This document shows, piece by piece, positions 47,861-57,690 of a DNA stretch of 64,000 nt. The notes beneath the pieces are model-generated. The model was not told the origin of the DNA. It did not search any database and saw nothing but the letters and a program-made list of their open reading frames with translations. The stretch spans positions 1,216,001 through 1,280,000 of the forward strand of contig OY969807.1 of assembly GCA_963703285.1 (NCBI GenBank), in the 5' to 3' direction. Position numbers and translations under genes: made by a program. The stretch's first letter is position 1. Every line of letters starts with the position of its first letter. This stretch comes from an uncultured Nitrososphaerota archaeon. GTDB lineage: Archaea > Thermoproteota > Nitrososphaeria > Nitrososphaerales > Gagatemarchaeaceae.

Positions 47861-48523
47861 TTAAGGATTTGCGGACTGTCGGACGAGGGAGTCCGTCGGC
47901 GGCGGCGTCTCTACCAGGTCGACGTCGAAGACCCTGGAGAAGCTGTCTGCCACCTGCCTCTTCACGAGCCCCATGTCGAGCTTTCTCCCCCTGAGAGCCT
48001 CCATCGACGTCATCACATCCGGGTCGAGCCCGCAGGGCCGGATCAGGTGAAAGTAGCTCATGTCGGTGTTGACGTTGAGGGCGAATCCGTGGTAGGTGAC
48101 CCAGTTGGTCACCGCCACCCCGATGGAGGCGAGCTTCTTGTTCCCCACCCAGACGCCGGTGTGTTTCTCCCTGCGGCCTGCTTCGATCGACGAGGCCGAG
48201 GCGGCGAGGATGAGGACCTCTTCGAGCGAGCGGACGAAGTTCCTCACGTCCGGCACCTCCATCTTGATGATCGGATACCCCACCAGCTGGCCGGGACCGT
48301 GGTAGGTGGCGTCGCCGCCCCTCTCCACCTGGAAGACAGGGACGCCAAGCGGCCTGAAGTTCTCCGCCGTGGTCTTCCTGCCCAGCGTGACCACGTGCTC
48401 GTGCTCGACCAGGATGAGAGTGTCGGGGATCTGCCCCCTAGAACGGGCTTCGACGAGGGCCTTCTGCAGCTCCCAGACTTCGGCGTAGGGCCTCGTCCCG
48501 AGGTCGACCAGGGAGGCGCTCAT
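47861..48523 (-). CDS. lipB: Octanoyltransferase LipB
   Basis: EH..V.TLGR, RGGDATYHGPGQLVGYP, KLASIG, HGFALN, PCG. Confidence 0.95.
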   Translation of the reverse strand: MSASLVDLGTRPYAEVWELQKALVEARSRGQIPDTLILVEHEHVVTLGRKTTAENFRPLGVPVFQVERGGDATYHGPGQLVGYPIIKMEVPDVRNFVRSLEEVLILAASASSIEAGRREKHTGVWVGNKKLASIGVAVTNWVTYHGFALNVNTDMSYFHLIRPCGLDPDVMTSMEALRGRKLDMGLVKRQVADSFSRVFDVDLVETPPPTDSLVRQSANP

Positions 48524-49917
48524 GGTCTCAGCTGGTGTATCGGTCTGCCTGAGGCCGACTCCGAGGCCTCCATAATCGCCTCCGGAAGGGTCGGGTGGGG
48601 ATGGATGGTCAGCGCCAGGTCCTCCACGGTCGCTCCCATCTCGATGGCCAGGGCGGCCTCGCTTATCAGGTCCGAAGCCTCGGTTCCGACTATCTGTACC
48701 CCTAGCACCAGGCCGGAGCTGGTCTCGGAGACCACCTTCACGAAGCCATCGGTCTCCCCTGCCGCGACGGCCCTCCCCAGCGCCGCGAACGGGAACCTCG
48801 TCTTCTTCACTTCGTATCCGGTTTCGACCGCCTCCTTCTCGGTCAGGCCGACCCCGGCGACCTCGGGGTCGGTGAAGATCGCCCAGGGGATGACGTTCCA
48901 TCCCGCCGCCGTCTTGAGGCCCGCCGCAGCCTCCGCTGCCACGATCCCCTCCTTCTGTGCCTTGTGGGCCAGGAGCGGCGTCCCCCTGACGTCGCCTATT
49001 GCGAAGACGGACGGCGCGCTCGACCTCATCTGGTCGTCCGTTGTGATGAACCCCTTGGCGTCGAGCTTGACGCCCGCCAGTTCGAGCCCCAGACCTGCAG
49101 TGACCGGCTTCCTCCCCACGCTGACGAGAATCACCTCCGCGTCCAGCTTGGCCTCGCCCTTCGGTGTCTCCACCGTGGCCAGGACGCCGTCCGCGGTCTT
49201 CTCTACCGAGACAACTTTGGACTTCAGGAGTATCGAGGCGCCCCTCCGCTCGAGGCTCCTCTGGACGTACCTTACGAGTTCGGGCTCCGTCCCGGGGAGC
49301 AGCTGGTCCATGACCTCGACCACCGCGATCTGCGACCCGAGCCGCTGGTACATGCCTGCGATCTCCAGCCCGATGTATCCGCCTCCGACCACGAGGATCT
49401 TTCTGGGGAGCCTCTTCAGCTCCAGCGCCTCCCTCGAGGTCAGCACGGTCCTGCCGTCAATCTCGAGGCCCGGGAGCGAGGCGGGGCTCGAGCCGGTCGC
49501 CACGACAATGTGCTTCGTCGAAAGGTCCTCCGTCCCGCCCTCACTCTTCACCCGGACGACGTTCTGTCCGGCGATCGTCGCCTCCCCCTTGATCACCTCG
49601 ACCCCGTAGCCCTTGCAGAGGTTGGCGACCCCCGTCTCCATCGTCCGGACCACCCCGTCCTTCCAGGATTGCAGCGCCTCGAAGTCTATCGACAGCCCTT
49701 CGGCGCGGATGCCGAACCTGGAGCCCTCCTTCACCTTGTCGAAGGCCTTTGCGACCGAGATGAGCGACTTGGAGGGGATGCAGCCCGCGATGAGGCACTC
49801 GCCCCCCAGGCGCGCCTTCTCGGCGAGGACCGTCTTGAGGCCGAGCTGGGACGCCCTGATGGCGCAGACATAGCCGCCGGGCCCACCGCCTATGACGACG
49901 AGGTCTACATCTCTCAA
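48520..49917 (-). CDS. lpdA: Dihydrolipoamide dehydrogenase (E3)
   Basis: GGGPGGY, GGECL..GCIPSK, HPHPTLPE. Confidence 0.96.
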   Translation of the reverse strand: MRDVDLVVIGGGPGGYVCAIRASQLGLKTVLAEKARLGGECLIAGCIPSKSLISVAKAFDKVKEGSRFGIRAEGLSIDFEALQSWKDGVVRTMETGVANLCKGYGVEVIKGEATIAGQNVVRVKSEGGTEDLSTKHIVVATGSSPASLPGLEIDGRTVLTSREALELKRLPRKILVVGGGYIGLEIAGMYQRLGSQIAVVEVMDQLLPGTEPELVRYVQRSLERRGASILLKSKVVSVEKTADGVLATVETPKGEAKLDAEVILVSVGRKPVTAGLGLELAGVKLDAKGFITTDDQMRSSAPSVFAIGDVRGTPLLAHKAQKEGIVAAEAAAGLKTAAGWNVIPWAIFTDPEVAGVGLTEKEAVETGYEVKKTRFPFAALGRAVAAGETDGFVKVVSETSSGLVLGVQIVGTEASDLISEAALAIEMGATVEDLALTIHPHPTLPEAIMEASESASGRPIHQLRP

Positions 49918-49972: not shown

Positions 49973-50887
49973 TCAGCGAACGTAGGAGAGCCAGGACTTG
50001 TAGCCGTCTATCCTTCCGTGGATGGCGTCCAGGTAGAGTCTCTGGATCCTCTTGGTCACCGGGTACTCGCCGCCCCCCACCTTCCTCCCGTCGACCTCGC
50101 GGATGGGCGTGACGTTCGCGGCGGTCCCGCTGAAGAAGAGCTCGTCGGCCGTGTAGAGCTCGTCCCTCGTGAAGTCTCTCTCGTACGCCTCGATGCCGTT
50201 GTCCCTTGCTATCTGGAGGACCGACATCCGTGTTATGCCGCCGAGGATGCCCGACTGCATCGTGGGCGTGTACAGGACCCCGTTCTTCACCCTGAAGATG
50301 TTCTCCCCCGACCCCTCCGCCACGTTGCCGCCGAGCGTGAGGATGATGGCCTCCTCGTAGCCGGCCGCGAGGGCGTCCATCTTCGCCAGTATCGAGTTGG
50401 CGTAGTTTGCTGAGCACTTCGCCTGCGGCGGGAGGATGCGGGCATCAATCCTGGCCCAGGCAGAGACGCCGCATCGGATGCCCTTCTCCATTCCCTCGTC
50501 GCCGAGGTAGGCGCCCCACTCCCAGCAGGCTACCGCCCCTATCACCTTGTTCTTCAACGGGTTGACGCCCAGCTCGCCGAAGGAGCTGAAGACGATGGGC
50601 CTGACGTAGCAGGCCTGGAGACCGTTCTCCTTCACGACTTCCATGCACGCAGCCGTGAGCTGCTCCTTCGTGTACGGCAGCGCCATCCTGTAAACCCTGG
50701 CGCCGTCGAAGAGCCTATCCATGTGCTCCCTCAGACGGAAGATGGCCGGTCCGTCGGGGGTGTCGTTGCACCGTATGCCCTCGAATATGGAGTACCCGTA
50801 GTGCAACGCGTGGGTCAGGACGTGCACCTTGGCGTCGTCCCAGGGGACGAGCCTACCGTCGAACCAGATGAACTTCGTCGGCTGCAA
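49973..50887 (-). CDS. ilvE: Branched-chain amino acid aminotransferase
   Basis: HALHYG..IFEG, EGSGENIF, L.GITR; TTG start at 50887. Confidence 0.95.
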   Translation of the reverse strand: MQPTKFIWFDGRLVPWDDAKVHVLTHALHYGYSIFEGIRCNDTPDGPAIFRLREHMDRLFDGARVYRMALPYTKEQLTAACMEVVKENGLQACYVRPIVFSSFGELGVNPLKNKVIGAVACWEWGAYLGDEGMEKGIRCGVSAWARIDARILPPQAKCSANYANSILAKMDALAAGYEEAIILTLGGNVAEGSGENIFRVKNGVLYTPTMQSGILGGITRMSVLQIARDNGIEAYERDFTRDELYTADELFFSGTAANVTPIREVDGRKVGGGEYPVTKRIQRLYLDAIHGRIDGYKSWLSYVR

Positions 50888-50931
50888 CTCTTGTCGCCCG
50901 GTTCTCGTCCCGAGGCCTATTTTACGTATCG

Positions 50932-51957
50932 CTAGGCCGCCAGCTGCCCGGCGACCGCGGCTCCGACCTCGGACGTGCTGCTTGTCCCCCCGAGGTCCTG
51001 GGTCGTCACGCCGCCCTCCAGCGTCCGGTCGACCGCCCTCCGGACCGCCGCCGCGGCGTCGCCACAGCTTGCGTCGCCACGTTCCTCCGCCAGCCACTCG
51101 AGCATCATCGAGCAGGTCAGGATGATCGCGACGGGGTTGGCCAGGCCCCTGCCGGCGATGTCGGGCGCGGCCCCGTGGACCGGCTCGAATATCGCGTCCT
51201 TCTCTCCAAGGTTCGCCGAAGGCGCCACCCCGAGCCCGCCCACGAGCTGGGCCGCCTCGTCCGAGAGTATGTCCCCGTACATGTTGGTGGTGACGATCAC
51301 GTCGAAGGACTCGGGCGTCCTGATGAGGTTCATTGCCGTCGAGTCGACGAGCATGTCGCTGAAGGAGACGGACGGATGTCCCGACGCGACCTCCCTGCAC
51401 GCCTGCAAGAAGAGGCCGTCGGTCTTCTTCAGCACGTTGGACTTGTGGACCGCGACCACCTTCCTCTGGCGGTTCCTCCGCTCGGCGATCTCGAACGCGC
51501 GCTCGGCTATCCTGGCCGAGGCCTTCCGGGTGATGGTCCTAAGCGCGACCGCTCCTCCCTCGAACTCGAACTCCATCCCGCGGTAGAGGCACTCGGTGTT
51601 CTCCCTCACCATGACGAAGTCGATGTCCGGCCTGAGCGACGGGACGTGCGGGAGGCTCACCGACGGCCTGATGTTGGCGTAGAGGTCCAGCGTCTGTCTG
51701 AGCTTCACGATGGTCTCGGCCGCCGTCTCTCCCACCGGGCCCTTGAGGCAGGCGTCCGAGTCCCTGATGGTCGTGACCGTCGCGGCGGGGAGCGCTTCGC
51801 CTGTCCTCGACTTGCACGCGTCCCCTGCGGGCGCGGGCCGGAACTCGAACCTCAGGTCGAATCGGGGTCTCAGCGCCTCTAGGACCGCGACGGCTGCCGA
51901 CGAGACCTCCGGACCCACCCCGTCCCCCTCTATCTGGGCGATGTTGTAGGTCGTCAT
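50932..51957 (-). CDS. leuB: 3-isopropylmalate dehydrogenase
   Basis: GDGVGPEV, RENTE, NMYGDILSD, FEPVHGAAPDIAG; operon context. Confidence 0.9.
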   Translation of the reverse strand: MTTYNIAQIEGDGVGPEVSSAAVAVLEALRPRFDLRFEFRPAPAGDACKSRTGEALPAATVTTIRDSDACLKGPVGETAAETIVKLRQTLDLYANIRPSVSLPHVPSLRPDIDFVMVRENTECLYRGMEFEFEGGAVALRTITRKASARIAERAFEIAERRNRQRKVVAVHKSNVLKKTDGLFLQACREVASGHPSVSFSDMLVDSTAMNLIRTPESFDVIVTTNMYGDILSDEAAQLVGGLGVAPSANLGEKDAIFEPVHGAAPDIAGRGLANPVAIILTCSMMLEWLAEERGDASCGDAAAAVRRAVDRTLEGGVTTQDLGGTSSTSEVGAAVAGQLAA

Positions 51958-51976
51958 GCGAAAACCAGCGGGCTCT

Positions 51977-52498
51977 CTACTGGGCCGAAGCCTTCAGCCT
52001 CTGCCTGACCCTCTCCCTGACGTACCCGAGGAAGCCGCCCCTCTTCATCTGCTCGATGTCCGAGTCGCTGGCCGTCACGGGGTATTCCGTCCCCTTGGTG
52101 AGGTCATTCAGGGTGCGTGCGTCGAGGTCGATCAGGAGCTCGTCCCCGGGGTCGATCCGACTCGTGTCGGCAACCTGTATCGGCAGGAGGCCGTTGTTCA
52201 GGGCGTTCCTGTAGAAGATGTCGGGAAACGACTGGGCGACCACCGCGACGACGTTGTTGTACTTCACGGCGTAGACGGCCTGCTCCCTCGAGGATCCGCA
52301 CCCGAAGTTGTTCCCGGCAACGACAATGCTCTCCCTGTTCGCCCTGCACGCCGCCTTGAACGACGGGTCGTAGTACTCGAAGGCGTGGTCTGCGAAGAAC
52401 TGCTTGTCCCAGCTCTCCTGGAGCAGGTACGCAGGTATGATGTAGTCGGTGTTGATGTCGTCGAGGTACTTCTTGGCGACCTTCCCTCGCATCTGCAA
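51977..52498 (-). CDS. leuD: Isopropylmalate isomerase small subunit
   Basis: DINTDYIIP, NFGCGSSREQA, IFYRNA.N.G. Confidence 0.93.
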   Translation of the reverse strand: MQMRGKVAKKYLDDINTDYIIPAYLLQESWDKQFFADHAFEYYDPSFKAACRANRESIVVAGNNFGCGSSREQAVYAVKYNNVVAVVAQSFPDIFYRNALNNGLLPIQVADTSRIDPGDELLIDLDARTLNDLTKGTEYPVTASDSDIEQMKRGGFLGYVRERVRQRLKASAQ

Positions 52499-52499
52499 T

Positions 52500-53816
52500 T
52501 CAATCACCCAGGTACTTCCGCGGGTCGGCAATCCTTCCCTCGACGGCGGTGGTAGCGGCGACGGCGGGCGAGCCGAGATAGATGAAGGCCTCGGGCGAGC
52601 CCATCCTCCCCCTGTAGTTGCGGTTGCTCGTCGAGAGGCACCTGTCCCCGGGCGCGAGTATCCCCATGTGCTTGCCGAAGCAGGGACCGCAGTTGGAGGA
52701 CTCGATGTTCGCCCCGCTCTGCGCGATCGTGTTGAGAATCCCGTTCTCCATCGCCCAGTTGTACACCTTGCGGCTCGCGGGTATCACGATTAGGTTGGTG
52801 TCCGGGTGTACCTTCCTGCCCTTGAGTATCCGGGCGGCCAGGGCGAGGTCACTCTTCCTCGCGTTCGCGCAGGAGCCCAGGAAGACGACGTTGATGGGGT
52901 CGCTCACCTCGCTGACCGGCCTCGCGTTCGCGGGCGAGTGCGGGAGCGAGACGGTCGGCTCGACGGACGCTGCGTCCACGTTCACGGTCCGGGAGAAGGC
53001 CGCGTCCTCGTCGCTCTTCATTATCGTCCCCGACTCGGCGGGTGTGAGGGCCCTCCCCTTGGCCGTGAGGGCGCCGCCGACGTAGTCCATCGTCTTCTGG
53101 TCAGGGTTGACTATAGCGGTCCGGGCCGACATCTCAACAGAGAGGTTGCAGATCGTGAACCGGCCGTCCATCTCCATCGAAGAGATGGTGGGACCTTCGT
53201 ACTCCGCGACCATCTTCGAGCATCCCCCCTCGCCCATGACCCCGAGGACGTGCAGGACGAGGTCCTTGGGATAGACGCCCCGCGGGAGTTCGCCGTCGAC
53301 GTGGAAGCGGACCGACTCGGGGACCCTGAACGAGTAGAGCTCGCCCGTCGCAAGGAGGTTCTCGGCCTCGGTCGTGCCTATGCCGAAGGCCAGCGACCCC
53401 AGCGCGCCCTGGGTGCAGGTGTGGGAGTCGGTCGCCACGGCTATCTCGCCGGGGAGGACGAACCCCTCCTCTGACGCTATCGTGTGCTCGATCCCGTCCC
53501 CCTCCTTGTACATCGCTATCTGTTGCTGCTTTGCGAAGTCGGCCATCAGCTTGATGCCGGCGCTAACCATTATCGAGCACGAGGGGACGGTGTGGTCGGG
53601 CATGAAGGCGACCCTCGCCGGGTCGAAGACCTTCATCCGCCTCCCCGCCTCCTGGTACACGTCGGCGAAGTCCTTCTGGAAGTTGAGGATGGCGGGCGGC
53701 CCGATGACCTCGTTGAAGTAGAGCTTGTCGACAGGCAGGGCCTCGACCAGTTCTCCGGCAGCGACGGGCCTTCCGACGGCCCGGGAGACGATCTTCTCGG
53801 TTATGGTGCGTCCCAT
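52500..53816 (-). CDS. leuC: Isopropylmalate isomerase large subunit
   Basis: DSHTCT.GA, GSCAN, CGPC.G, STSNRNY.GRMG. Confidence 0.93.
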   Translation of the reverse strand: MGRTITEKIVSRAVGRPVAAGELVEALPVDKLYFNEVIGPPAILNFQKDFADVYQEAGRRMKVFDPARVAFMPDHTVPSCSIMVSAGIKLMADFAKQQQIAMYKEGDGIEHTIASEEGFVLPGEIAVATDSHTCTQGALGSLAFGIGTTEAENLLATGELYSFRVPESVRFHVDGELPRGVYPKDLVLHVLGVMGEGGCSKMVAEYEGPTISSMEMDGRFTICNLSVEMSARTAIVNPDQKTMDYVGGALTAKGRALTPAESGTIMKSDEDAAFSRTVNVDAASVEPTVSLPHSPANARPVSEVSDPINVVFLGSCANARKSDLALAARILKGRKVHPDTNLIVIPASRKVYNWAMENGILNTIAQSGANIESSNCGPCFGKHMGILAPGDRCLSTSNRNYRGRMGSPEAFIYLGSPAVAATTAVEGRIADPRKYLGD

Positions 53817-53818
53817 CT

Positions 53819-55381
53819 CTAGAGACCCTCTATTGGCCTGGCGGGGCTCTCCTTCTGGAGCTCCTCCGTCCTCCTGATGCCGTCCTTCTTCGCGAGTAGG
53901 GCGTTCGTCCCGGCGACGACGGCCTCCACGCTCGCGACGACGATGTCCCTCTTCATCCCCCTGCCCGAGGCGGTGTGCCCCTCGCCGTCCTCCACCTCTA
54001 CGGTCACGTCGGCGACGGCGGCCGAGTCCCCCGTCAGGGCTTCGAGCCTGTAGTTCTTCAGGCGGACCGTCTCGATGTTGCTGAATATCTTCTGGATCGC
54101 GTTCACGGCGGCGTCGACCGCACCCGACCCCACCTCGGTGGCCTCGTGGAGATGGCCGCGGACGAGCAGCTTGACGGTGGCGGTTGGGAGCCTCTTTATG
54201 CCGGTCACTACCTCCAGACCTTCGAGCTCGACGAGCTCGTTCTTCTCCGCGCTCCCTCCTCCCATGATTTTGACCGCCATCTGGTAGAGGTCCGAGTCGG
54301 TGACGGTCGAGCCCCCGTCCCCCGTCTCCTTCACCTTGGCCACGATGAGCCTCAGGCTCTCCTCTTTGGGCTTGAGCCCCATCCCGCGCAGCTGCGCGGA
54401 GATGCCGTGGCGGCCCGCGTGCTTCCCGGCCTGCAGCCACCTGGTCCTGCCGACCATGGAGGGGTCGAAAGGCTCGTAGGTCGAGGGGTCGTTCAGCACG
54501 CCGTCCGTGTGTATGCCCGACTCGTGCCCGAAGGCGTTGTCCCCGATTATCGCCTTGTTCGGTTGGATGGGGACGCCGGTCAGCCTGTTGACGAGGCGCG
54601 ACGTCTCGTACAGCAGCTGATAGTTGACGTTCGTGCTCACGCCGTAGAGGTTGCTGCAGGCCATCACGAACTCCTCCAGAGAGGTGTTGCCGGACCTCTC
54701 GCCGATGCCGTTGATCGTCGCGTGCACCTGGTCGGCCCCGGCCATCACGCCCGCGAGGCTGTTCGCGACCGCCAGGCCGTAGTCGTTGTGGCAGTGCATG
54801 CTGATTGTCATGCCGGAGACCGACCTGGCGGCCTCTGTGTACTCCGCCATCCGCTGAGGAGTCGCGATGCCCACAGTGTCGGGGATGTCGAAGCGGTCCG
54901 CGCCCGCGTCCGAGACCGCCTTGACGACCTCCTTGAAGAACCCGATGTCGGTCCTGGTGGCGTCCATCGCCGAGAACTCGACCTTCACCCCGAAGCCCTT
55001 AGCGTACCTCACAGCCTCGGCGGACTGGACCAGCATCTTCTCCCTCGTTATGTGGAGCTGGTGCTGCATGTGGACGTCCGAGGAGGAGAGGAAGACGTGG
55101 ATCCCGCCTACGCCGCAGTCGATGGCCGTCTCGATGTCGACCTTCTCAGCGCGGGCGAGGCCGCAGACCTCTGCCCTGAGGCCGGACCTAGCGATCGCGC
55201 GGACCGCTTCCTGCTCACCCTTCGAGGTTATTGGAAACCCCGCCTCTATGACGTCGACGCCCAGACGATCCAGTGCCAGGGCTATCTCGACCTTCTCCTG
55301 GGGAGTGAGAGAGACGCCGGGCGTCTGCTCGCCGTCCCTGAGTGTCGTGTCAAGGATCCTGACGAGACGCGAGCCGCTCAC
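53819..55381 (-). CDS. leuA: 2-isopropylmalate synthase (LeuA/CimA family)
   Basis: [31 protein letters not shown]-terminal regulatory domain. Confidence 0.88.
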
Positions 55382-55854
55382 GACTGGACCTCCTTGGGTA
55401 GCGCCGCGACGCCCGTCCTCGCTATGTCGAGGACGCTGGTCTGCAGGCTGGAGACGAAGTCGTCGATCTGCTTTGCGCTCCCGACGATCTCGACGACCGC
55501 GGAGCGGGCGGAGGAGTCGACGATGCGGCAGGAGTTCATCTTCTGTAGGTCGGCCAGCGTCATCTTGTCGGTGTTGATTCTCACGAGCGCGAGCTCCCTG
55601 GCCGTCACCTCCTCCGGGGCGTAGGTCCGGGCCTCGAGGACGTCGATCACCTTCATCAGCTGCCTGGCGACGTGCTCCACCGCGGCGTCGTCGCCCTCGA
55701 GCGTCATCGTCATCCGGACGTCGTCGCCCCCGTTGGTCACGCCGACGGTCATCCCGTCGATGTTCAGGCGCATCAGGCGCACGAGGTGGACAACGCGGAA
55801 GAGGGTGCCCGGCTTGTTCTCGACGAGCGTCGAGAGGATCTTCGATGACCTCAA
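55378..55854 (-). CDS. ilvN: Acetolactate synthase small (regulatory) subunit
   Basis: LVENKPGTL, QL.K.IDV, RELALV, ARTG..AL; TTG overlaps the ilvB stop. Confidence 0.92.
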   Translation of the reverse strand: MRSSKILSTLVENKPGTLFRVVHLVRLMRLNIDGMTVGVTNGGDDVRMTMTLEGDDAAVEHVARQLMKVIDVLEARTYAPEEVTARELALVRINTDKMTLADLQKMNSCRIVDSSARSAVVEIVGSAKQIDDFVSSLQTSVLDIARTGVAALPKEVQS

Positions 55855-57581
55855 AAGATCGACAGCTCCTTTGGGGTGCCGTAGACCGTGTCCTTGATCG
55901 CCTTGCCTGGGGGCATGAACGGGAAGACGTCCTCCTCGTGCGAGACGGGGACCTCTATTAGCGTGGGGGAGTCTGACCTGATGCCTTCCCTCAGCGCCTT
56001 GCCGAACTCCTGGAGCGAGCCGACGCGGGTGCCCTGCACTCCGTAGGAAGCCGCGAGCTTCACGAAGTCGGGGACGTTCTGGAACTTTATCCCGATGAAG
56101 TGCCTGTTGTACATGAGGCGCTGCCACTGCTCGACCATCCCGAGCGACCTGTCGTTCATCACCACGGCCACGACCGGGATATGCTCCTCGACCGCCGTCG
56201 CGAGGGCCTGTTCTGTCATCACGAACGACCCGTCGCCGTCGAAGTCGACGACGGGGACGCCGGGCGCGGCCACCTTGGCGCCGAGCGCAGCGGGGAGCCC
56301 GAAACCCATCGTGCCGAGGCCGGTGGACGTCACCCAGGTCCTCGGCCTCAGTACCCGGTAGTGTATCTCGCACCACATCTGATGCCTGCCGACGCCCGTC
56401 GTGAGGATGGCTTCCGGTGGCAGGATCTCCCTCATCAGCTTGACTATGCGGGGACTGGAGAGCTCGCTGTACGAGTCCTTGTAGGCCGGGATTCCCTTCA
56501 TCTCCTCGCGGACGAGGTCGAGCCTCGTCAGCCACGCGTTGTCCCCCGACCTCTTCACCATGCGCCGGACCAGGGCGTCGAGGAGCATGGTGAGGACGAC
56601 GTTGGCGTCACCGAGGATGCTCAGCGTCACGAGCTTGTTCTTGTTGAACTCGGTCGGGTCGGCGTCGATGTGGATGATCTTGGCGTCGGGCGCGAACTCG
56701 CTGAAGGTGCCCGTGGAGCGGTCGGAGAAGCGCACGCCCACGGCGAGGAGGACGTCGCACTCGCCGACGAGCTTGTTCGCCTCGGCTCTCCCGTGCATCC
56801 CGATGGGTCCCACGGAGAGGGGATGGTCCTCGGGGAAGGTCCCCTTCCCCTGGAGGGTCGTGATCACCGGCGCCATGAGGAACTCGGCTAGGGCCCTGAA
56901 CTGCATGGACGCGTCGGCGATCCTGATGCCTCCCCCGCCGAAGAGGAGGGGCCTCTGCGCCTTCACGAGCATGTCGGCGGCCCTCTCGATGTCCTGGGCG
57001 TCGACGGCGACGCTGGGCCTGTAGCCCCTAATCTGTATCGACTCGGGGAACGTGATCTCGGCCTCCTCCTGCTGGACGTCCTTCGGCACGTCGAGGAGGA
57101 CCGGGCCCGGCCTGCCGGTCTGGGCGATGAAGAAGCTCTTCTTGACGGCCGAGGGTATCTCGGCGGCGGAGAGGGGCTGCAGGGTGTACTTCGTGACCGG
57201 AGTGAGCACCCCGACGACGTCCGTCTCCTGGAACCCGCTCTTGCCCGTCATGCTCTTGGAGACCTGGCCCGTGATGGCGACGACCGGCGATGAGTCGGCG
57301 AACGCGGTCGCTATCCCGGTGACGAGGTTCGTGGCCCCCGGACCCGAGGTCGCCGAGCAGACGCCGGCCCTCCTCGAGACCCTCCCGTAGGCGTCCGCCA
57401 TGTGCGCCCCAATTTGCTCGTGCCTCACGAGCACGTGCTTGATCTTCGAATCCCACAGGGCGTCGTAGAAGGGGAGGTTGGCGCCTCCCGGCATCCCGAA
57501 GATGTACTCTACCTTCTCCTTCTCGAGGGCCTCCACGATGGCCCTTGCGCCGGACATTTTTTCAGGCATTGTAATCGCCAC
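55851..57581 (-). CDS. ilvB: Acetolactate synthase large subunit
   Basis: RHEQ, TSGPGATN, FQE.D, GMHG, GTMGFGLPAA, GDGSF; start at GTG 57581 or ATG 57569. Confidence 0.96.
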   Translation of the reverse strand: MAITMPEKMSGARAIVEALEKEKVEYIFGMPGGANLPFYDALWDSKIKHVLVRHEQIGAHMADAYGRVSRRAGVCSATSGPGATNLVTGIATAFADSSPVVAITGQVSKSMTGKSGFQETDVVGVLTPVTKYTLQPLSAAEIPSAVKKSFFIAQTGRPGPVLLDVPKDVQQEEAEITFPESIQIRGYRPSVAVDAQDIERAADMLVKAQRPLLFGGGGIRIADASMQFRALAEFLMAPVITTLQGKGTFPEDHPLSVGPIGMHGRAEANKLVGECDVLLAVGVRFSDRSTGTFSEFAPDAKIIHIDADPTEFNKNKLVTLSILGDANVVLTMLLDALVRRMVKRSGDNAWLTRLDLVREEMKGIPAYKDSYSELSSPRIVKLMREILPPEAILTTGVGRHQMWCEIHYRVLRPRTWVTSTGLGTMGFGLPAALGAKVAAPGVPVVDFDGDGSFVMTEQALATAVEEHIPVVAVVMNDRSLGMVEQWQRLMYNRHFIGIKFQNVPDFVKLAASYGVQGTRVGSLQEFGKALREGIRSDSPTLIEVPVSHEEDVFPFMPPGKAIKDTVYGTPKELSIF

Positions 57582-57624
57582 TCTCCAATAGAATCTCCTC
57601 GCTTGAAATCTCGAGCGAGGTGCT

Positions 57625-57690
57625 CTAGACTAAAACAATCAACGCTACAAGGACGAGAACCGCCGAAGTAGTAGCGTTGCCGCGCTGCAT
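57625..57690 (-). CDS. Putative Val/Leu/Ile-rich leader peptide (uORF) of the ilv-leu operon
   Basis: ATG...TAG encoding MQRGNATTSAVLVLVALIVLV; ends 43 nt before ilvB; starts at the predicted TSS. Confidence 0.7.
   Translation of the reverse strand: MQRGNATTSAVLVLVALIVLV

Follow-up and report, generated by a model that had tools for sequence, protein, structure and literature searches.

Attenuation by leader peptides, which relies on transcription being coupled to translation, is a textbook example of bacterial gene regulation. Among the leader peptides of classical attenuation are the enterobacterial ilvL, ivbL and leuL, the last of which uses rare codons too, and in the classical four-region attenuator the regulatory codons lie in region 1 and regions 2 and 3 form the antiterminator. 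Here we analyze a candidate archaeal leader of this general kind: an upstream open reading frame (uORF) of 21 codons, rich in codons for valine, leucine and isoleucine (V/L/I), ahead of an ilv-leu operon in a 64,000-nucleotide (nt) stretch of DNA, hereafter the window (contig OY969807.1 of assembly GCA_963703285.1, positions 1,216,001 to 1,280,000), from an uncultured nitrososphaerotal archaeon of the Gagatemarchaeaceae. From its composition, conservation and predicted folding, we consider it likely that the element is a cis-acting leaderless, ribosome-sensed leader for branched-chain amino acids, in which a ribosome at the end of the ORF would control an adjacent hairpin.

Several described systems invite comparison. 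The passages of PMC1262725 on the ilvB leaders of Corynebacterium, Mycobacterium and Streptomyces describe runs of Ile, Val and Leu codons that overlap or abut a candidate terminator hairpin. The ilvBNC attenuator of Corynebacterium glutamicum is leaderless in the account given in the corresponding section of PMC11857589, the transcript starting one nucleotide from the leader start codon, with a hairpin near the 5′ end. In mycobacteria, according to the part of 10.1101/834739 that concerns leaderless polycysteine short ORFs (sORFs), stalled ribosomes open a duplex that hides a downstream ribosome-binding site, and the relevant section of PMC4007540 lists fourteen predicted leader peptides of Deinococcus deserti, from 5′-AUG or 5′-GUG transcripts, before amino-acid and tRNA-synthetase genes. 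An earlier, sequence-only reading of the window knew of no experimentally established leader-peptide attenuator in archaea. The full-text literature searched describes no amino-acid-sensing leader peptide in archaea, and the main passages of two archaeal ribosome-profiling papers (PMC7261190, PMC11456600), whose supplements may list uORFs relevant to this point, treat uORFs only generally.

At the sequence level, a short ORF stands between a promoter-like box and the first gene of an amino-acid operon (Table 1). Its last 11 codons comprise five Val, four Leu, one Ile and one Ala, confirming the earlier count of ten V/L/I codons in this tail. Among the 9842 ATG ORFs of 12 to 45 codons in the host genome (2.25 Mb, 60.6% G+C), it alone has V/L/I codons at nine of its last ten positions; five short ORFs genome-wide have eight of ten, and the four of these that were inspected do not precede a branched-chain gene. 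The start codon lies 30 nt from the TATA-like box, within the peak seen for the long ORFs of the genome (57 of 217 motif–start pairs at 29–35 nt, mode 31), which bears out the leaderless spacing proposed earlier, and on the strength of this spacing the ORF is presumed to be translated without a 5′ leader. Measured against 551 long ORFs, seven of the ten V/L/I codons are rarely used for their amino acid (TTA 0.9% of Leu, TTG 5.5%, CTT 9.8%, GTT 7.7% and used twice, GTA 7.8%, ATT 11.5%), in agreement with the observation that the tail favors uncommon A/T-ending codons. The ORF has no match in Pfam and is of a kind that escapes routine annotation.

The tail is conserved at orthologous loci. We searched 41 relatives, 121 genomes of the class and 151 genomes of the phylum for ilvB and recorded, up to 130 nt upstream of it and in three frames, the highest V/L/I count in the eight codons before any stop, a scan that takes no account of start codons; loci with too little upstream sequence (L004, L162) or no N-terminal match (L079, L080) were dropped. 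Tails with at least six V/L/I codons of eight occur at 51 of 80 same-class loci, in 14 of 20 families, against 3 of 80 in the reverse-complement control, counts that are not independent because the loci are phylogenetically related. The sequence-only reading had made its case depend on finding the uORF, enriched for the end products of the operon, in related genomes, and this is what was found. Examples, each running up to the stop codon, are ...ALIVLL, ...SLVLV, ...LILVIILLL, ...TPLVLVVV, ...EVLLVILI, ...LLLVELVL, ...ALIVLLIVV and ...ILSIILIL. Outside the class, 2 of 40 loci of the phylum are positive (control 1 of 40), and one of the two, in family f44, looks genuine, with LVIVVILK before the stop codon and then a 10-base-pair hairpin. 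The leader is also present in named metagenome-assembled genomes (MAGs) labelled Gagatemarchaeum, Nitrososphaerales and Thaumarchaeota, in a MAG labelled Marsarchaeota G1 (MSRTTSIAQNIILIVLGLLVVLV, then stop) and in one labelled Bathyarchaeota (...LIALLIVVLVLLV, then stop); Nitrosocosmicus and Nitrososphaeraceae MAGs carry a weak form ending in ...LLL. Lineages with a TATA box directly ahead of ilvB and no leader act as natural negative controls: family f25 has no positive among two loci and family f23 one among 11, which is probably due to chance. Short ORFs are plentiful in G+C-rich genomes, and a chance open frame might be supposed for this reason, yet the single occurrence among 9842 ORFs and the excess of tails over the control make that explanation hardly conceivable.

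What is conserved in the tail is its amino-acid class. Between families the tails, N-terminal parts and hairpins are wholly different in sequence; G+C-rich lineages spell the tail with GTG, CTC and ATC, A+T-rich ones with TTA, ATT and GTT, with no change of amino-acid class. Among codons with T in the second position, 76 distinct tails together have 459 for V/L/I, 9 for Phe and 6 for Met, whereas shuffles of the tail nucleotides predict 24% Phe among such codons. A, S, Q, E, P and K make up most of the other tail positions. Between members of the genus, both of the two gap runs inside the uORF have a length divisible by three, against none of the six between the stop codon and ilvB. Moreover, an in-frame ATG (TTG in two cases) follows a TATA-like motif at 22–42 nt, mostly 29–37 nt, in 22 of the 24 family representatives. 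Judged by these comparisons, conservation of the tail is specific for V/L/I and not for general hydrophobicity, and the tolerance of Phe and Met that would have pointed to a membrane peptide is not seen. A short hydrophobic peptide that is functional in itself, for instance membrane- or enzyme-associated, would account for a conserved ORF with a hydrophobic C-terminus; we find it highly improbable, since the hydrophobic stretch spans only about 8–12 residues, often includes Asp, Glu, Pro or Gln, rarely includes Phe, Met, Trp or Ala, and exchanges V, L and I freely, and since the N-terminal parts and the lengths (14–31 residues) are not conserved between families. At 8–12 residues, the tails also do not resemble a membrane-spanning helix that tolerates hydrophobic residues in general.

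Two predicted hairpins accompany the uORF (Table 1). In hairpin 1, the V/L/I tail folds back on the 5′ part of the ORF; at least six tail nucleotides are paired in this way in the predicted folds of 20 of the 24 family representatives, with a mean z-score of −1.4. Hairpin 2, with a predicted energy of −11.8 kcal/mol in the host, abuts the stop codon: at nearly all positive loci it begins between −11 and +5 nt from the end of that codon, in a sequence that is family-specific. Its z-score against shuffles averages −1.7, with 34 of 60 loci below −1.5; these hairpin statistics, and those on T-richness below, leave out L023, L025, L050 and all f23 and f25 loci, where the best tail is not at the leader position. 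Both hairpins also emerge from RNAalifold consensus folding, in family f12 (14 sequences) and in a subgroup of the genus (8 sequences). Hairpin 2 and the nucleotides after it take clear terminator-like shapes in some families, such as GGGCCGC followed by TTTTTT in f26 and TACAGCGC followed by a run of four or five T in f12.

The hairpins raise the question of whether the ORF is incidental and the two hairpins form a structured 5′ leader RNA whose effect is mediated by a protein or metabolite. Alignment folding does predict both hairpins in two groups, and tail nucleotides are well conserved within the genus (for example TTAGTCTAG). Such an RNA would not, however, be expected to keep its amino-acid class as its nucleotides shift between G+C-rich and A+T-rich lineages, to exclude Phe and Met almost entirely, to confine indels to those that keep the frame, to hold a start codon at leaderless distance in 22 of 24 representatives, or to place the stop codon always within a few nt of hairpin 2, and we regard this explanation as very unlikely. 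A search of nine loci against Rfam 15, with E-values up to 1, gave no match save a spurious long non-coding RNA hit in L019, a result that is neutral on this point.

For the reading that we prefer, that of a ribosome-sensed leader, the following course of events is proposed. Transcription would start at or beside the AUG and yield a leaderless mRNA, on which a ribosome translates the 21-codon ORF. The last 8–11 codons, for Val, Leu and Ile and many of them rare, would double as the 3′ arm of hairpin 1, paired with the 5′ part of the uORF, and the stable hairpin 2 would begin a few nt past the stop codon. With charged Val-, Leu- and Ile-tRNAs in ample supply, the ribosome would finish and leave, hairpin 2 would fold, and expression of ilvB and the later genes would be lowered, the likeliest route being premature termination at the T-rich run after hairpin 2. 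With one of these tRNAs scarce, the ribosome would linger on the last codons, its footprint over the 5′ arm of hairpin 2 would keep that hairpin unfolded, and transcription or expression would go on. Translation of the uORF, stalling, the direction of the effect and termination as its output are all points that we infer, and conditional termination would be the most likely output.

Constrained folding of the 24 representatives with an imposed ribosome footprint is consistent with this geometry. Hairpin 2 has a probability of at least 0.5 in 23 of them with the A site seven codons before the stop; moving the A site onto the stop codon brings this down to 0.05 or less in 20. Depending on the family, the hairpin is lost for the last one to five sense codons. 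The ribosome's structural effect in these folds is therefore steric. The segment made before the 3′ arm of hairpin 2 shows no alternative fold beyond that of shuffles, and mutually exclusive antiterminator and terminator structures, chosen by ribosome position as in classical attenuators, were not found among the 24 representatives. The host leader (L001) has a weak, genus-specific alternative fold (−8.7 against −11.8 kcal/mol). Pairing of the stop region with the loop of hairpin 2 was also considered as an antiterminator; it is weakly present in the genus subgroup (L001–L006) and not general.

A number of observations weigh against a ribosome-sensed attenuator and need to be set beside this evidence. 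The rare codons of the leader may just mirror A+T-richer intergenic DNA. The locus counts overstate independence, 22 of the 80 loci coming from f12 and 15 from f1. In constrained folding no general antiterminator excludes hairpin 2, and pairing of a freed 5′ arm with the terminator was not borne out; in the host leader, the hairpin is covered only by a ribosome on the stop codon or, in part, on the last sense codon (0.63, 0.02). A stall early in the tail would not cover hairpin 2, an outcome of the wrong sign if the polymerase does not wait for the ribosome; the model therefore needs a polymerase paced by the ribosome, or some pause. T-rich sequence after hairpin 2 is only modestly enriched (21 of 59 loci against a background of 20%) and comes mainly from f12 (14 of 20), and part of family f21 has no hairpin past the stop codon. 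Archaeal polymerases terminate at oligo-T without need for hairpins, and a hairpin with a T-run is not enriched after genes of the host genome (36 of 719, against 30 of 719 shuffled), which does not support it as the general terminator of the lineage; plain T4 runs are enriched there (59, against 7 inside genes). A scan of the window for bacterial sigma-70 promoters and terminators is uninformative, the host being an archaeon. Finally, in the similar ilvB leader of Streptomyces coelicolor, a swap of the regulatory codons had no effect, as the passage on that experiment states (PMC1262725). The bacterial-style attenuator proposed by the sequence-only reading therefore stands in part: its core, a conserved V/L/I-specific leader that looks translated, is supported, while a general antiterminator is missing in the folding of the representatives, the T-run depends on the family, and the hairpin with T-run is not a general terminator in the host genome.

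Another possibility is a translated uORF whose effect in cis is on translation, with no conditional termination of transcription, either through a stalled ribosome that opens a structure limiting the initiation of ilvB or through constitutive termination–reinitiation coupling. Hairpin terminators are not general in the host genome, hairpin 2 ends only 4–10 nt before a GGTGA or GGAGG motif in several families, and the mycobacterial leaderless poly-Cys sORFs act in this way, according to the passages cited above (10.1101/834739). In part of f21 (L054, L059, L060), the TAG stop of the uORF overlaps the ribosome-binding site of ilvB (tAGGAGGTGA), 9–10 nt before the start codon; the arrangement suggests translational coupling rather than termination in this variant. 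With no hairpin and the stop codon on the ribosome-binding site in these loci, the output step may differ between lineages. As a general account, however, an effect on translation seems rather unlikely, given that accessibility at −18 to +6 of ilvB does not change consistently in the folds with a ribosome on the tail (24 representatives), that the ribosome-binding site lies outside hairpin 2, and that the gap of 23–68 nt in most families is long for reinitiation.

The genes downstream are those expected of a branched-chain operon. NCBIfam models agree with the order ilvB-ilvN-leuA-leuC-leuD-leuB-ilvE given earlier: ilvB, ilvN, leuA, the leuC-type and leuD-type subunits and ilvE all score above their cut-offs, and the leuB-type dehydrogenase falls slightly below its own (402.9 bits, cut-off 409.8). 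The earlier distance of 43 nt between the uORF stop and ilvB holds for a GTG at 57581; the start conserved among relatives is the ATG at 57569, 55 nt past the stop. A GGAG ahead of this ATG is a possible Shine-Dalgarno element, and relatives have GGTGA or GGAGG motifs at the corresponding site. The nearest named relatives of this ilvB (92% identity) are in MAGs labelled Candidatus Gagatemarchaeum stordalenia and Nitrososphaerota, which upholds the assignment of the DNA to an archaeon of the Nitrososphaerota. The gene upstream of the leader encodes an unrelated glutamine cyclotransferase. The ilvC and ilvD genes are near the operon yet separate from it (contig 1282955–1283890 and 1289255–1290862, 3–11 kb past the end of the window); in the host genome neither has a uORF, and each has its own TATA-like box at leaderless distance. 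Elsewhere in the window, a LipB (octanoyl transferase) domain covers residues 124–331 of a 346-residue frame (47861–48901, minus strand), whose first ~120 residues have no domain match, so its start may be called too far upstream.

Table 1. Features of the leader and operon, in window coordinates.
Feature	Position	Strand	Remarks
TATA-like promoter box ttaaatataa	57711..57720	minus	First base 30 nt from the A of the uORF ATG; box and spacing recur in relatives
21-codon leader ORF MQRGNATTSAVLVLVALIVLV with TAG stop	57625..57690	minus	ATG 57690-57688, TAG 57627-57625
Hairpin 1, 5′ arm CAACGCTAC	57671..57679	minus	Codons 4-7; predicted by RNAalifold from 8 genus sequences
V/L/I tail, codons 11-21 (V L V L V A L I V L V)	57628..57660	minus	Presumed sensing codons
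Hairpin 1, 3′ arm GTAGCGTTG	57640..57648	minus	Codons 15-17, Val-Ala-Leu, inside the V/L/I tail
Hairpin 2, CCTCGCT, 10-nt loop, AGCGAGG	57597..57620	minus	Predicted; starts 5 nt past the stop codon
Weakly T-rich stretch agattctatt	57587..57596	minus	Possible termination tract; picked up by terminator-like scan
GGAG, possible Shine-Dalgarno element of ilvB	57583..57586	minus	13 nt ahead of the ATG
ilvB (acetolactate synthase large subunit)	55851..57569	minus	First operon gene; NCBIfam TIGR00118, 682.7 bits (cut-off 538.35)
ilvN, leuA, leuC-type, leuD-type, leuB-type, ilvE	49973..55860	minus	Same-strand ORFs, tightly packed or overlapping

The sequence-only reading had also suggested looking for analogous uORFs, rich in Trp, His or Thr, ahead of other biosynthetic operons, and these did not turn up. 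Short ORFs of the host genome rich in Trp, His, Thr, Phe or Cys gave nothing convincing (a crude TATA-filtered scan returned 27 ORFs, and the unfiltered scan was too noisy), and no leader was seen before trpE or pheA in that genome. Across loci, a His-rich leader (at least three His in seven codons) precedes hisG at none of 27, and no Trp-rich leader was found before trpE. What was found in their place is a short uORF that carries one cognate codon. Before hisG, such uORFs contain D-x-hydrophobic-H at 10 of 27 loci, against 1 of 27 on the reverse strand; they were noted at L235, L220, L222, L230, L216, L207, L211, L219 and L231 and in the host genome. Examples are MRDYLHTR, MSDCIHRE and ..GDYLHR, each followed by a stop codon, and VGDSVHKR..; each has one His codon, in the motif [R/G/S]-D-x-hydrophobic-H. 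The host's own hisG uORF, MRMRGDQLHGSW.., fits this motif and lies outside the window (contig 1303587–1303655), 34 nt past a TATA-like box. At 3 of 30 trpE loci (L237, L241, L245; families f5 and f14), the uORFs MGDLVWS and MGDRFWHE stand directly upstream and share G-D-x-hydrophobic-X with the hisG uORFs, X being Trp; in L237 a hairpin and a T5 run follow. A TATA-filtered scan of the whole genome for M-x-D-x-hydrophobic returned 10 hits, of which the hisG leader was the only one kept, the others having been inspected and dismissed.

Some further observations concern these genes. Upstream of ilvB in other classes (L098, L099, L103, L104, L106, L108, L109, L114, L118, L124–L127) there is a different conserved element, which may represent short uORFs that share a single conserved Leu codon (MRDRFL and VRRNRFLRK, each before a stop codon, MRDCVLEK.. 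and M..G.YTLQ..). An equally good reading is a hairpin of the form GAGG...CCTC, with a Shine-Dalgarno-like GGAGG as one arm and the complementary CCTCC as the other. In several families (L246, L256, L260, L261), a conserved CAGTGTACA box stands immediately ahead of the trpE TATA box and is operator-like, as for a DNA-binding regulator. The host has hisG, and none of five genomes from other genera of its family (G288, G294, G299, G306, G312; 94–100% complete) has a HisG match, which may reflect histidine auxotrophy or a divergent enzyme.

The single-cognate-codon uORFs are a lead and not a result. With that reserve, we put forward, only tentatively, that ribosome-sensed attenuation could exist in a domain-specific form on the leaderless mRNAs of Nitrososphaeria and of some neighbouring Thermoproteota, with the V/L/I tail abutting a hairpin as the sensor at ilvB. 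A second, minimal leader, M-(G/R/S)-D-x-hydrophobic-X, may carry a single cognate codon at X, for His in front of hisG, for Trp in front of trpE and perhaps for Leu at the ilvB genes of other classes. If so, archaeal amino-acid operons would be coordinated by ribosome pausing, possibly helped by a conserved nascent-peptide motif. The ilvB leader spans a class with abundant soil and marine lineages, is short enough for reporters and in vitro work, and serves as a marker for further sensory short ORFs; should the proposed mechanism be correct, it would provide a compact natural system for ribosome–polymerase coupling and termination in archaea.

In its outline the element resembles several bacterial leaders, and it matches none of them throughout. 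It shares with the mycobacterial Cys sORFs, as these are described in the passages cited, a leaderless sensory short ORF as the first cistron and a run of cognate codons, and differs in that the unmasking of the ilvB ribosome-binding site was not seen in the folding of 24 representatives. The Deinococcus deserti leader peptides, likewise predictions, are bacterial and, in the section cited, have few cognate codons. The overlapping antiterminator and terminator hairpins of C. glutamicum are not found here in general. Like ilvL, ivbL and leuL, the leader encodes a peptide enriched in end-product amino acids ahead of a biosynthetic operon; unlike the classical attenuator, its regulatory codons reach the stop codon, the stop codon abuts the hairpin, and the start is presumed leaderless. 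The actinobacterial ilvB leaders have in common with it a short V/L/I-rich ORF and an abutting hairpin before ilvB, whereas they work with a bacterial polymerase and intrinsic terminators, the promoter here has an archaeal TATA box, and there is no sequence relationship between the two. If the proposed reading is right, archaea have evolved the same logic, so far shown only in bacteria, with a promoter and a polymerase of archaeal type and on a leaderless mRNA.

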